The notes below the pieces were generated by a model. The model saw only the letters and a program-made list of their open reading frames with translations. It ran no database searches and was not told the origin of the DNA. 30,495 bases of DNA from the IMG/VR virus record IMGVR_UViG_2778261162_000001, positions 1-30,495 of that record; one strand, given 5' to 3'. The position numbers were made by a program, and so were the translations under genes. Shown piece after piece: positions 24,400 through 30,149 of this stretch. Position 1 is the stretch's first letter, and every line of letters begins with the position of its first letter. Origin of the DNA: a virus (lineage: Duplodnaviria; Heunggongvirae; Uroviricota; Caudoviricetes).

Positions 24400-24674
24400 A
24401 ACAAATGTCACTAATTGAGATGGATGGATTTCTGAAAGGTAAATGCATCCCACGAGATTTAAAGGTTAACGAAACAAACGCTGAATATCTTGTCCGTAAG
24501 TTCGGTGAACTTGAATCAAAACTCAACGAGCAGCGTGAGTATTACGAAGGTGTTATCTCGGATGGGAGTAAGCGCATTGCTGAACTGGAGAAAAGCGAAG
24601 AGCAACTCATTATTGAGCAAGCAACTCACTGGATGCCACTACCAGAACCGCCACAGGAGTCGAAGAGTGAATAA
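24378..24674 (+). CDS. Early-left protein of unknown function (coiled-coil-like)
   Basis: 98 aa ORF; the actual start may be the Met at 24396 or 24405. Confidence 0.45.
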
Positions 24675-24888
24675 AGCAGAGTTATTTCAGAAAATATCGG
24701 CTCTCGCGACTGAATGCCACGCTATAGCATCTGAGCTTGATGTTGGCGATGAACGAACCGAGATGTTCGAAATATACAGTGTGCTGCGCAATCTCTGTCG
24801 GCGTGGCTACGCCACTCAAGTAGGGCGAATGACTAACCCACTACTCTCATCCTGTGATGAGGATGACTCGGATGAGGATGACGAATGA
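24666..24888 (+). CDS. Small acidic early protein of unknown function
   Basis: 74 aa from GTG at 24666 preceded by AGGAG; acidic C-terminus DEDDSDEDDE; translationally coupled to the next gene. Confidence 0.4.
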
Positions 24889-25550
24889 TGCATAAATCAG
24901 TAGCCGGTGAGTTTCAGAAGGAAGTCGATAATACTACCGTTCTATTGGACGATATTTTAAGCATTCTCGCGCTGCTTGAGGCTGGCGATTGGTCAGAACA
25001 TTGCACTAAAACAGAGCTAGGCGGTCGGCTTGAAAGAGAGATTACACGACTTATTGGTGATGCGCAGGAAGCTACAGTCACTAGTTATGAGTTAATCGCT
25101 GAAGCCTGGCGTTTGATGGATGGACAAGATCCTAAAACCAGCGATTGGCATAGCAAGGCTTCGAAGTATTTAAATTCCAATAGGGTAGAAAAAGTTGATG
25201 ATGTGAAACCGAAGCCAGTAGACCACGGTTTCCGCGATAACTGCGAATGCTCTAGTTGCCAGACCACGGCCCGTATTTGTTCCGAATTGACAGATAAGTC
25301 CAGCCTAATCTACGAAGTTAATGTAGGCGGTAATACATGGGTCGAATGCACAAGAGCTGCATACGTAAGAGCAAAAGACAAGGGTGAATTAACCAGAGTT
25401 GTTACCAATCACCCAAATAATGAGCTTAAAGATCACCAGATTCGAGAACTGGTGAACGAGTTGAGGGATATTGCGGTTCAGTACCACGGAACGCAGCAAT
25501 TGCGGGAGAAGATTGCCAGAGCAGTGAACAACTCAGTCCGTAAAAAATAA
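24885..25550 (+). CDS. Early-left protein of unknown function (221 aa, Cys cluster CECSSC)
   Basis: Last gene of the PL-direction operon before a strong hairpin at 25569-25591. Confidence 0.55.
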   Translation: MMHKSVAGEFQKEVDNTTVLLDDILSILALLEAGDWSEHCTKTELGGRLEREITRLIGDAQEATVTSYELIAEAWRLMDGQDPKTSDWHSKASKYLNSNRVEKVDDVKPKPVDHGFRDNCECSSCQTTARICSELTDKSSLIYEVNVGGNTWVECTRAAYVRAKDKGELTRVVTNHPNNELKDHQIRELVNELRDIAVQYHGTQQLREKIARAVNNSVRKK

Positions 25551-25605
25551 GCAATAGTACGATAAAGAGGCCCCATGCTCTTGATGGGGCCTGTAGCAAC
25601 TAGCG

Positions 25606-25689
25606 TTATGGACGCTGGTTTACGTACTCAATGATCGCTTTGATAATCGCGAACATCGGCGGCACGATTTTGAACAGTAAGTTAACCAT
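25606..25689 (-). CDS. Candidate small peptide (27 aa, partly hydrophobic), speculative
   Basis: ATG preceded by GAGG at 6 nt spacing; peptide MVNLLFKIVPPMFAIIKAIIEYVNQRP; followed on the minus strand by the 8 bp GC-rich hairpin at 25569-25591. Confidence 0.3.
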   Translation of the reverse strand: MVNLLFKIVPPMFAIIKAIIEYVNQRP

Positions 25690-25993
25690 AACAGGCCTCA
25701 CTTAGTTTTATCGCGCCTAGCTGCAAATACCTTTGGGCTTGCCTTTGCAGTTGCAATATCTGTAGTCGCCAGATACTTACGGCACGATTTCGAGTTAAGG
25801 TAAGGTTTTAGAGTCACCAAAAACCTGGACTTAAATCTTCTTTGAGAACAACGATGTTTAGTAAATGGTCATTATTACCTGGTATGACCACTCAACGTTT
25901 CTTGATGAATCCAGTACATTCGGTTAATCTTAATTCAGTCGCCAGATACTTATGGCTCAGGAACAGAGCCGCAAACTCTGTTTCCTTTTAAAA

Positions 25994-26020
25994 AGCCCAG
26001 CCTAGTCAACTGGGCTTTTT
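25994..26020. terminator. Bidirectional rho-independent terminator-like hairpin
   Basis: Stem AGCCCAG/CTGGGCT with 9 nt loop, flanked by an A-run upstream and a T-run downstream. Confidence 0.55.
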
Positions 26021-26315
26021 AATGTCTATTTTTAACCCAATGAACCTTCAATACCGCAACATCAATGTCTTGCGAATTAAGATAGTGTGTATAGGTTATA
26101 CATGCAAGTGCATAACTCTGTGGATAACTCAGGAAGGAAAAAGTAGCTTCCGCGCAATTTAGGCCAGACAAGGCTTTCGCAAAAGTCAACGGAGAGAAAA
26201 AATTTGTTAAAAATAACGTTTGTTGGAATAGTATATATTTATGCCTTTCAATAGTTAGCATCTTATTAACATCTTTTTTAAGAGATAGAGTTCAAAAATA
26301 TATAGCTTCAACATA

Positions 26316-26335
26316 TACTGTATATATACACAGCA
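26316..26335 (+). promoter_or_regulatory. LexA box (SOS operator) upstream of the UmuD'-like gene
   Basis: TACTGTATATATACACAGCA fits CTG-N10-CAG with an AT-rich centre; 17 bp upstream of the start codon. Confidence 0.65.
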
Positions 26336-26351
26336 TTAAGAGGCGAGTATT

Positions 26352-26807
26352 ATGGGCTTCCCTTCTCCTGCGGCGGATTATGCTGAGAGCCGTATTTCTC
26401 TTGATCAGCAGATAATTAGACATCCTTCAGCGACCTACTTCTTGAGGGCAGCTGGTAGCCATCATCGTGAGGGAATATTGCAGGGTGCATTGCTGGTGGT
26501 CGATTCATCACTCACTCCTGTTGATGGATCTCTTCTTGTATGTGCTCTGGATGGGGAATATCGCGTAAAAAGATACCGGAAGTATCCGCGCCGCCATGAT
26601 TGTCTTTCTCCTAATGCAGGAAAAGCAGAATGGCTAAATCATCAGCAGAGCGCAAAGCCGATCAGAGAGCCAAGCAAGCATCATCCGGTATGCGTAAGCT
26701 GGAGCTTGTACTTGATGCTCAGGAAATTGAAATGCTGGATCGTAACTGAGCCACGCGCCGCTTCAGGCATTCGCCTTGCGAGTTTGGTGAGTACATCGCG
26801 TTACTGA
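26352..26807 (+). pseudogene. UmuD'-like (LexA/S24 fold) gene, probably degenerate: similarity to UmuD 25-110 only, catalytic Ser apparently replaced, divergent C-terminus
   Basis: MGFPSPAADYAESRISLDQQIIRHPSATYFLRAAGSHH...LLVVDSS...ALDGEYRVKR aligns to E. coli UmuD from the Cys24-Gly25 cleavage site onward; GDSM is replaced by GSHH; no similarity after about residue 90. Confidence 0.5.
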
Positions 26808-28171: not shown

Positions 28172-28372
28172 ATGCAACACGAACTACAGCCTGATTCACT
28201 GGTTGATTTGAAATTCATCATGGCTGATACTGGCTTCGGTAAGACCTTCATCTATGACCGGATTAAGTCCGGCGACCTGCCTAAAGCCAAAGTTATCCAC
28301 GGACGAGCAAGATGGTTATATCGTGACCATTGTGAATTCAAAAATAAGCTCTTAAGCCGCGCCAATGGGTAA
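28172..28372 (+). CDS. AlpA-family transcriptional regulator / excisionase-like protein
   Basis: 66 aa; KFIMADTGFGKTFIYDRIKSGDLPKAKVIHGRARWLYRDHCEF is typical of the AlpA HTH family found next to P4-type integrases. Confidence 0.75.
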   Translation: MQHELQPDSLVDLKFIMADTGFGKTFIYDRIKSGDLPKAKVIHGRARWLYRDHCEFKNKLLSRANG

Positions 28373-28901: not shown

Positions 28902-30149
28902 CTATATTGCTGAAGGTACAGGCGTTTCCATAACTATTTGCTCGCGTTTTTTACTCAAGAAGAAAATGCCAAATAGCAACATCAGGCAGACAATACCCGA
29001 AATTGCGAAGAAAACTGTCTGGTAGCCTGCGTGGTCAAAGAGTATCCCAGTCGGCGTTGAAAGCAGCACAATCCCAAGCGAACTGGCAATTTGAAAACCA
29101 ATCAGAAAGATCGTCGACGACAGGCGCTTATCAAAGTTTGCCACGCTGTATTTGAAGACGGATATGACACAAAGTGGAACCTCAATGGCATGTAACAACT
29201 TCACTAATGAAATAATCCAGGGGTTAACGAACAGCGCGCAGGAAAGGATACGCAACGCCATAATCACAACTCCGATAAGTAATGCATTTTTTGGCCCTAC
29301 CCGATTCACAAAGAAAGGAATAATCGCCATGCACAGCGCTTCGAGTACCACCTGGAATGAGTTGAGATAACCATACAGGCGCGTTCCTACATCGTGTGAT
29401 TCGAATAAACCTGCATAAAAGACAGGAAAAAGTTGTTGATCAAAAATGTTATAGAAAGACCACGTCCCCACAATAAATATGACGAAAACCCAGAAGTTTC
29501 GATCCTTGAAAACTGCGATAAAATCCTCTTTTTTTACCCCTCCCGCATCTGCCGCTACGCACTGGTGATCCTTATCTTTAAAACGCATGTTGATCATCAT
29601 AAATACAGCGCCAAATAGCGAGACCAACCAGAAGTTGATATGGGGACTGATACTAAAAAATATGCCGGCAAAGAACGCGCCAATAGCATAGCCAAAAGAT
29701 CCCCAGGCGCGCGCTGTTCCATATTCGAAATGAAAATTTCGCGCCATTTTATCGGTGAAGCTATCAAGCAAACCGCATCCCGCCAGATACCCCAAGCCAA
29801 AAAATAGCGCCCCCAGAATTAGACCTACAGAAAAATTGCTTTGCAGTAACGGTTCATAAACGTAAATCATAAACGGTCCGGTCAAGACCAGGATGAAACT
29901 CATACACCAGATGAGCGGTTTCTTCAGACCGAGTTTATCCTGAACGATGCCGTAGAACATCATAAATAGAATGCTGGTAAACTGGTTGACCGAATAAAGT
30001 GTACCTAATTCCGTCCCTGTCAACCCTAGATGTCCTTTCAGCCAAATAGCGTATAACGACCACCACAGCGACCAGGAAATAAAAAAGAGAAATGAGTAAC
30101 TGGATGCAAAACGATAGTACGCATTTCTGAATGGAATATTCAGTGCCAT
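28902..30149 (-). CDS. cscB: Sucrose:proton symporter CscB (LacY-family MFS permease)
   Basis: 415 aa translation begins MALNIPFRNAYYRFASSYSFLFFISWSLWWSLYAIWLKGH and is recognised as E. coli CscB over its length; 12 TM helices. Confidence 0.95.
   Translation of the reverse strand: MALNIPFRNAYYRFASSYSFLFFISWSLWWSLYAIWLKGHLGLTGTELGTLYSVNQFTSILFMMFYGIVQDKLGLKKPLIWCMSFILVLTGPFMIYVYEPLLQSNFSVGLILGALFFGLGYLAGCGLLDSFTDKMARNFHFEYGTARAWGSFGYAIGAFFAGIFFSISPHINFWLVSLFGAVFMMINMRFKDKDHQCVAADAGGVKKEDFIAVFKDRNFWVFVIFIVGTWSFYNIFDQQLFPVFYAGLFESHDVGTRLYGYLNSFQVVLEALCMAIIPFFVNRVGPKNALLIGVVIMALRILSCALFVNPWIISLVKLLHAIEVPLCVISVFKYSVANFDKRLSSTIFLIGFQIASSLGIVLLSTPTGILFDHAGYQTVFFAISGIVCLMLLFGIFFLSKKREQIVMETPVPSAI

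Follow-up and report, generated by a model that had tools for sequence, protein, structure and literature searches.

What occupies the apparently empty 0.8 kb between positions 25551 and 26350 of IMG/VR virus record IMGVR_UViG_2778261162_000001, a stretch of 30,495 nucleotides (nt) of Caudoviricetes DNA that was analysed at its full length (the window)? The gap is bordered by a gene of 221 amino acids (aa), function not known (24885-25550), and by a truncated, umuD-like humD that begins at 26352. An earlier note had read it as a non-coding region standing where integrase and excisionase genes would be expected, and had likened its repeats, hairpins and small open reading frame (ORF) to a type I toxin-antitoxin or small-RNA locus, or to decayed attachment-site (att) arms. 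The features it listed are real, but the framing is wrong. Comparison with related loci makes it likely that 25560-26022 is a self-contained type I toxin-antitoxin module, in which the minus strand would give an mRNA with a structured leader of roughly 100-190 nt, the ORF of a 27-aa hydrophobic peptide and a terminator of its own, and the plus strand would give a divergent small RNA of 84 nt. The toxin-antitoxin or small-RNA interpretation thus gains comparative evidence for this part and fails for the right third of the region.

The peptide ORF (25606-25689, minus strand, 84 nt) lies exactly where the earlier note had listed it and encodes MVNLLFKIVPPMFAIIKAIIEYVNQRP, a hydrophobic sequence with a polar C-terminal end. 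Its AUG is preceded at a distance of 6 nt by the Shine-Dalgarno (SD) sequence GUGAGG (25696-25701, minus strand), and a purine-rich SD is equally placed in the homologues. Using weak BLAST matches together with a pattern search for a leader hairpin in genome and viral contigs, we assembled 23 distinct loci and traced the peptide by tblastn and DNA patterns. The ORF is kept in all 23 loci, which come from six enterobacterial genera, with a GTG start in two. Among 10 distinct 84-nt ORFs, the variable sites are distributed over the codon positions as 11/6/23 and the ratio of non-synonymous to synonymous polymorphism (pN/pS) is 0.24; the ORFs of the window and of locus L013 differ by nine synonymous and two non-synonymous changes. 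The ORF is under purifying selection, that is, it carries a coding signature, and the description of the gap as non-coding does not hold for it. The peptides share the consensus M..LL.K(I/L).PP...II...(E/D)Y.N.R. Past the end of the ORF stands the GC-rich hairpin reported earlier (25568-25592, 9 bp with six G-C pairs), which reads AGGCCCCAU...AUGGGGCCU then CUUUAU on the minus strand; it is terminator-like on that strand only and forms the putative rho-independent terminator of the toxin transcript. Divergent loci (Kp2-1, CF5125) have unrelated GC hairpins with T runs at the same post-ORF position. In some loci, two peptide ORFs, each of a different sub-type, follow one another in tandem, e.g. 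MQMLLLFLKLAHPVTVIIMTLLGFWKNR then MVNLLMKLLPPLVSIIVMVVDYFNKR, with one leader and a single small-RNA gene (L007 (~1300-1500), L008, L011, L024, L044 (1300-1480), and L045).

A link between the two strands comes from the direct repeats, both of which exist as the earlier note had proposed. The first, AGTCGCCAGATACTTA(C/T)GGC, is found at 25764-25783 and 25937-25956, 173 nt apart and identical at 19 of 20 positions; by our rough estimate, ~2e-5 such matches would be expected by chance in 800 bp. With one copy read from the plus strand and the other from the minus strand, the small RNA is complementary at its 5' end to the toxin leader. The predicted target site, GCCGUAAGUAUCUGGCGACU (25764-25783, minus strand), lies 75-94 nt before the AUG and makes up the loop and the 5' half of a hairpin. 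Among the loci, the two copies change jointly (GTCGCCAGATACTTA, ..ACATT, GTCGCCGGTTAACAAC, GCTGCCAGATACATT, GTAGCC..), so that in an alignment of the intermolecular helix 96.2% of the cells pair; both sides are changed in 9 of 24 pairs, a value reached by none of 500 shuffles, and sliding the partner by 1-3 columns as a control leaves 0-3 both-sided pairs and ~30% pairing. Within the 20-nt core, all differences between the copies are C/T or A/G and are compatible with G-U pairing in one orientation only, namely with the small RNA taken from the plus strand of copy 2 and the mRNA from the minus strand of copy 1. The stretch of identity between the copies opens precisely at the nucleotide predicted to be the first of the small RNA. 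A scan of the whole window with the 24 nt at the 5' end of this RNA singled out the toxin leader as the one outstanding trans target (-38.7 vs. -27.9 kcal/mol for the next best).

The candidate antitoxin RNA itself (25937-26020, plus strand) would consist of a 5' recognition segment (its first 20-24 nt), stem-loop 1, and a terminator stem-loop with a U run. The last of these is the bidirectional terminator of the earlier note, a perfect 13-nt inverted repeat (25988-26022) with A and T runs at its flanks. Both stems, stem-loop 1 and terminator, show co-variation, the folding z-score of the RNA is -5.8, and a covariance model built from it (R1) finds exactly one copy per locus in all 43 family loci searched. 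Upstream, we infer a promoter at 25902-25930 (plus strand; -35 TTGATG, 17-nt spacer, -10 TAATCT). A five-locus alignment shows no variation at the TTG of the -35 element or at four positions of the -10 element (T, A, A and the final T). Copy 2 of the first repeat begins 7 nt past this -10 element.

How might such an RNA, pairing far from the start codon, act on translation? A consensus fold of 15 divergent leaders offers a possible answer. Besides a 5' leader hairpin (25801-25828, minus strand), whose loop, UUGGUGA, is invariant and whose stem co-varies (three pairs changed on both sides), it contains a helix between two elements that we call E1 (AUCGUGCC, 25781-25788, minus strand) and E2 (GGCGCGAU, 25710-25717, minus strand). 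This helix is present in 15 of 15 sequences and encloses both the target hairpin and a further, invariant hairpin, CUGCAAAGG...UUUGCAG (25721-25750, minus strand). The invariance of the latter is partly due to ascertainment because it served as the search pattern, although it also occurs in loci found by BLAST alone (L044). E1 shares 3 nt with the target site and is at the same time one copy of the second direct repeat, CGGCACGATTT(T/C)GA (25660-25673 and 25780-25793, 13 of 14 positions identical), which taken alone is only marginally beyond chance. Its other copy, E3 (again AUCGUGCC, 25661-25668, minus strand), covers codons 8-10 of the ORF and is an alternative partner of E2. In a single-sequence fold of the window mRNA, E2:E3 pairing encloses the SD and the start codon, and in 11 of the 15 loci the four best partners of E2 include both E1 and an element within the ORF, 49-55 nt downstream of E2. 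The two-partner pattern holds with the other ORF sub-type, where E3 differs (CUCGCGC), and in two further loci the alternative partner of E2 directly covers SD and start codon. This suggests that the second repeat represents two alternative partners of one leader element and that the leader may act as an RNA switch. Binding of the small RNA involves the target hairpin as well as 3 nt of E1 and should therefore shift the leader towards the closed E2:E3 form. Making contact through its 5' end with the loop of the target hairpin, the RNA would zip up into a duplex of 20-24 bp about 75 nt upstream of the start codon, which would strip E1 out of the E1:E2 helix; the freed E2 could then pair with E3 within the ORF and enclose the SD and start codon. 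RNase III may also cut the long duplex, and by either route the peptide would not be made as long as the small RNA is present. The leader around the target site also resembles the start of the ORF (25764-25830 vs. 25640-25689, minus strand; L-E-I-V-P-stop vs. L-F-K-I-V-P-P), a hint at an origin of the leader, and thereby of the small-RNA gene, in a tandem duplication of the toxin ORF.

The distribution of the module bears on its function. It is present in 114 of 5426 complete E. coli genomes (~2%), mostly in SSU5-like phage-plasmids, and 105 of its 115 places in these genomes are on plasmids of ~100-120 kb, with 10 on chromosomes. Dozens of phage-plasmid copies match a 471-nt core of the window at 100% identity, which indicates that the module is intact here, and conservation extends down to ~68% identity in other genera, with the functional signatures kept. 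In Citrobacter, Klebsiella, Enterobacter, Kosakonia, and Kluyvera it stands alone in unannotated gaps of unrelated plasmids, in some of them next to replication or stability genes (a PHD antitoxin and RepB, or RepA). None of the records examined annotates the module, and our literature search returned neither the peptide nor any type I module of SSU5, pLF82, or pHCM2 elements. The plasmid bias and the free-standing copies near replication and stability genes, taken together with the precedent of dqlB/agrB, which has been experimentally validated as an addiction module of pOXA-48 (PMC12365149), point to post-segregational killing as the native role. Loss of the carrier SSU5-like phage-plasmid would then lead to killing or arrest of the cell. 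We give an even chance to the broader proposal of a new type I family, defined by the consensus peptide and the 84-nt RNA, serving as an addiction module of SSU5-like phage-plasmids and other enterobacterial plasmids, using an E1/E2/E3 switch flipped by the RNA and sometimes placing two tandem toxins under one RNA.

Several observations weigh against a toxin-antitoxin module. Sixteen of the peptides were without a match in Pfam, NCBIfam, PHROGs, and PADLOC (Hok, Ldr, Fst, TisB, Ibs, ShoB, ZorO, etc.), and in none of 21 distinct loci could a convincing, consistent sigma-70 promoter be assigned to the toxin transcript. The putative small-RNA promoter agrees with the consensus at 7 of 12 positions and was missed by a promoter scan. 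In 4 of the 15 loci, E2 pairs with E3 weakly or not at all, and the loci are interrelated and were mostly found through the leader-hairpin pattern, which makes the sampling biased. Furthermore, gene conversion could in principle produce co-variation between two direct repeats and may contribute to their identity, although it leaves unexplained both the one-directional G-U pattern and the coincidence with promoter and terminator signals.

Upstream of the toxin gene, promoter candidates picked by eye were dropped because of their inconsistent spacing. There is no LexA box at the toxin gene; the sole CTG-N10-CAG site in the region (26318-26333) lies before humD, >400 nt past the small-RNA gene. 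Between the small-RNA promoter and the toxin leader, the palindrome GGTCAT-N11-ATGACC (25867-25889) may represent an operator or, alternatively, a stem-loop at the 5' end of the toxin mRNA. It recurs in L012 with both sides altered (AGTCAT...ATGACT), and other sub-groups have different palindromes at the equivalent place, e.g. GGAACC...GGTTCC.

Among known systems, the closest in design are dinQ/agrB of the E. coli K-12 chromosome and dqlB/agrB of pOXA-48 and other plasmids, the latter encoding the DinQ-like type I toxin DqlB (Kristiansen et al. 2016, PMC5066626). Like the module described here, dqlB/agrB is plasmid-borne and usually unannotated and combines a small single-helix peptide (31 aa there, 27 aa here) with a divergent, trans-acting small RNA whose 5' end repeats the leader ~70-75 nt before the start codon; the repeats are ~180 nt apart, compared to 173 nt here. 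The two differ in that the DqlB and DinQ models miss the peptide here, the leaders lack sequence similarity, the complementarity is 35 nt there and 20-24 nt here, and the small RNA here has an extra internal stem-loop. They also differ in their carriers, which are SSU5-like phage-plasmids in the present case and IncL/M, IncI1, IncX, and other plasmids for dqlB/agrB (PMC12365149). The dinQ/agrB locus has the same 84-nt ORF length and the same layout (Weel-Sneve et al. 2013, PMC3567139), with the leader copy of the repeat ~70-76 nt before the start codon (75-94 nt here). Mutually exclusive leader structures, with the small RNA binding upstream of the ribosome-binding site, have been published for dinQ (PMC5066626), and E1, E2, and E3 suggest an analogous switch. 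Unlike the toxin gene here, dinQ has a LexA box at its promoter, and its locus contains two small-RNA genes (agrA and agrB) instead of one; neither its peptide nor its leader is significantly similar to those of the module. In zorO/orzO and tisB/istR-1, 18-21 nt pair within a long leader and the peptide has ~29 aa, although these peptides are unrelated to the one here. Their small RNAs are likewise divergent and pair far upstream of the ribosome-binding site (in part described in PMC5397157).

These similarities raise the question of whether the locus is a true but very diverged member of the dinQ/agrB-dql group, with its small RNA an AgrB homologue, which we regard as possible but rather doubtful. 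The geometry is the same (ORFs of 84-96 nt, a repeat ~75 nt before the start codon, and a divergent small RNA 170-230 nt away that opens with this repeat), and the N-terminus MVNLL of the peptide recalls MINLL of DqlB. In a permissive scan, Rfam AgrB (RF02891) matched 25942-26023 (plus strand) over its full length and shared CAGAGCC.C.AACUC in stem-loop 1, yet the score (27.6 bits, E 0.004-0.03) is below the gathering score of 40, and 10 divergent loci had no AgrB match, with weak matches to RNAI or OrzO-P instead (OrzO-P RNA, 21-33 bits in some family members vs. a gathering score of 60). The AgrB model is itself narrow, since it also misses the agrB of pOXA-48. In the reverse search with R1, the top foreign matches were pOXA-48 agrB, K-12 agrB, and agrA, but at 18-28 bits they do not exceed the 25 bits obtained with a terminator only. 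On the protein side, NCBIfam NF041472 (DinQ) and NF041473 (DqlB) matched none of six family peptides, although DinQ itself was detected, and comparison of the peptide profile with DinQ and pOXA-48 DqlB by hhalign gave a probability of 5.7% with six N-terminal residues aligned. A sensitive blastn search of the region against the K-12 dinQ locus returned scattered matches of 10-31 nt (E >=0.04), none of them colinear, and the LexA box of dinQ has no counterpart at the toxin gene. The locus would therefore appear to work like dinQ/agrB and dqlB/agrB without being a demonstrated member of that family; distant homology is possible, and the module may be a deep branch of the DinQ/AgrB lineage. If so, it would show how far such modules can diverge while their geometry persists.

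The remaining explanations dispense with a toxin altogether. It is unlikely, though worth considering, that the product is a membrane peptide whose level is tuned by the small RNA for transporter modulation, superinfection exclusion, or control of phage-plasmid lysogeny. The conservation and duplex evidence speak for regulation and coding rather than toxicity, the peptide matches no known toxin family, and no strong toxin promoter was found, all of which such a peptide would accommodate. It would fit less well with a module that is overwhelmingly plasmid-borne, moves alone between unrelated plasmids to places beside PHD antitoxin and RepB or RepA, has the architecture of proven toxin modules (PMC12365149, PMC3567139), and in some loci puts two tandem peptide genes under a single small RNA. 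We consider it very improbable that the repeats are DNA-level sites (protein-binding, arm-type, or iteron-like) kept alike by gene conversion, with the ORF and hairpins incidental. Paired binding sites of one protein, 173 bp apart, would also stay identical within a locus, but no candidate gene for a binding protein accompanies the module in the plasmid loci examined, and the copies differ in a way that preserves G-U pairing in one orientation only. Nor would such sites explain why the repeat begins exactly at promoter distance, why two co-varying stem-loops and a U run come after it, or why the ORF has a coding substitution pattern. Almost no probability attaches to decayed att arms or to junk left after loss of integrase and excisionase genes, for which the position near a prophage end speaks and nothing more. 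The excisionase gene lies further to the right and the integrase gene at the other prophage end, and the sequence is 100% identical to dozens of phage-plasmids and has its signatures intact at ~68% identity elsewhere. Moreover, the module sits in gaps of unrelated plasmids with no integrase nearby, and its repeats recur inside plasmids far from any integrase, so neither the att-arm reading of the earlier note nor an origin of the repeats as remnants of an insertion sequence or att arm is borne out.

If 25560-26022 is indeed a toxin-antitoxin module, the consequences extend beyond this prophage. SSU5-like phage-plasmids are common in E. coli, and a hidden addiction module would help to explain their stable carriage. 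Some of these elements carry resistance genes, e.g. CTX-M-15 on pECOH89 (PMC3999498). The module would also be relevant to plasmid curing, as shown for dqlB/agrB of pOXA-48 (PMC12365149), and it would mean that whole type I families are still missed by annotation pipelines. The 23 co-varying loci provide a ready set of natural compensatory mutants for studying recognition between small RNA and leader. For the window itself, the seemingly empty gap is accounted for, and the idea that excision functions are absent is corrected.

The correction follows from the genomic context. The window is a chromosomal P22/HK620-like prophage of E. coli, and the best-matching genome, AST215, is 99.3% identical to its right half. 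In AST215, the left end of the prophage is marked by tRNA-Arg and the integrase gene intS (L051 9762-11155), and the right end by a TorI-type excisionase, directly followed by the csc sucrose genes past the prophage end. The window likewise encodes a TorI/Xis homologue, a 66-aa ORF at 28172-28372 (plus strand; PHROG 66, E 2.7e-8; also named by PGAP), 1.8 kb to the right of the gap, and cscB is found at 28902-30149. The statement that no excisionase was present was therefore mistaken, and the gap is not the expected int/xis site, as xis lies further right and IntS is encoded beside tRNA-Arg at the opposite end in AST215. By comparison with that genome, int and xis would therefore flank the prophage, one at each end. 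This arrangement is that of KplE1/HK620-type elements.

The gap itself belongs to a foreign insert (24628-26590) with 98.5% identity to SSU5-like phage-plasmids such as pLF82, which has also been deposited as phage Cyrano. Entry of the module into the P22/HK620-like prophage within 2 kb of phage-plasmid DNA is the best explanation for this mosaic. The similarity to the phage-plasmids stops at ~26590, within humD, and this recombination breakpoint explains why humD (26352-26807, plus strand) is a pseudogene whose match to the 129-aa HumD model is restricted to residues 1-96. In the related phage-plasmid PhiR41_1, the cassette site holds a different 0.85 kb with a 174-aa ORF, indicating that the content of the gap is an exchangeable cassette and that the module is polymorphic in its presence among these elements. 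The entire 0.8-kb cassette is missing from PhiR41_1 and from one CMS-2020a record, which have the 174-aa hypothetical gene instead (L002 5354-5878; CP054387).

To the right of the small-RNA terminator, the gap contains other elements that do not belong to the module. The AT-rich tract of the earlier note is found here (GC 0.31-0.37 across 26075-26374). The segment 26103-26202 is ~80% identical to positions 86413-86514 of phage P1, a region annotated in the P1 record with two predicted DnaA boxes, and contains TGTGGATAA at 26118-26126 and a near copy of it at 26108-26116. It is ~87% identical in IncY P1-like plasmids, where it lies ~1.4 kb from humD. A promoter-like site for humD (TTCAAA-17-TATACT, 26291-26335, plus strand) overlaps the LexA box TACTGTATATATACACAGCA (26316-26335) and is conserved with humD of P1. 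In P1, the genes hot and lxr stand between the DnaA-box segment and the LexA site of humD, whereas both are absent here, and humD is truncated in the window, unlike in P1.

For the minus-strand ORF of 80 aa at 26019-26261, we weighed the possibility of an SOS-induced gene facing away from humD, comparable to lxr of P1, and rejected it, as the ORF has no similarity to Lxr. The ORF is cut to 53 aa in one subgroup, is absent in three loci, and shows many non-conservative changes. For these reasons, it is probably not a gene, and the description as non-coding may well hold for this part of the gap. The ORF spans from near the LexA box to the bidirectional terminator, and the minus strand also has a promoter-like site (26324-26297) that overlaps this box. 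An SOS-induced minus-strand transcript that stops at the small-RNA terminator is conceivable.

Two minor observations concern other places. In an IncY P1-like plasmid, an unannotated 1-kb gap by the DnaA-box segment contains a strongly hydrophobic 45-aa ORF, MNAFFQFLSAFLDAPIISQILAIILIIVLILLLRSVKNGIMHWLT (L052 2079-2216, minus strand), which may represent another unannotated small membrane peptide. In the window, an Rfam scan at gathering thresholds returned two tRNAs and nothing else; these are phage-borne tRNA genes of the late region, Thr(TGT) and Asn(GTT), at 13571-13726 on the minus strand.

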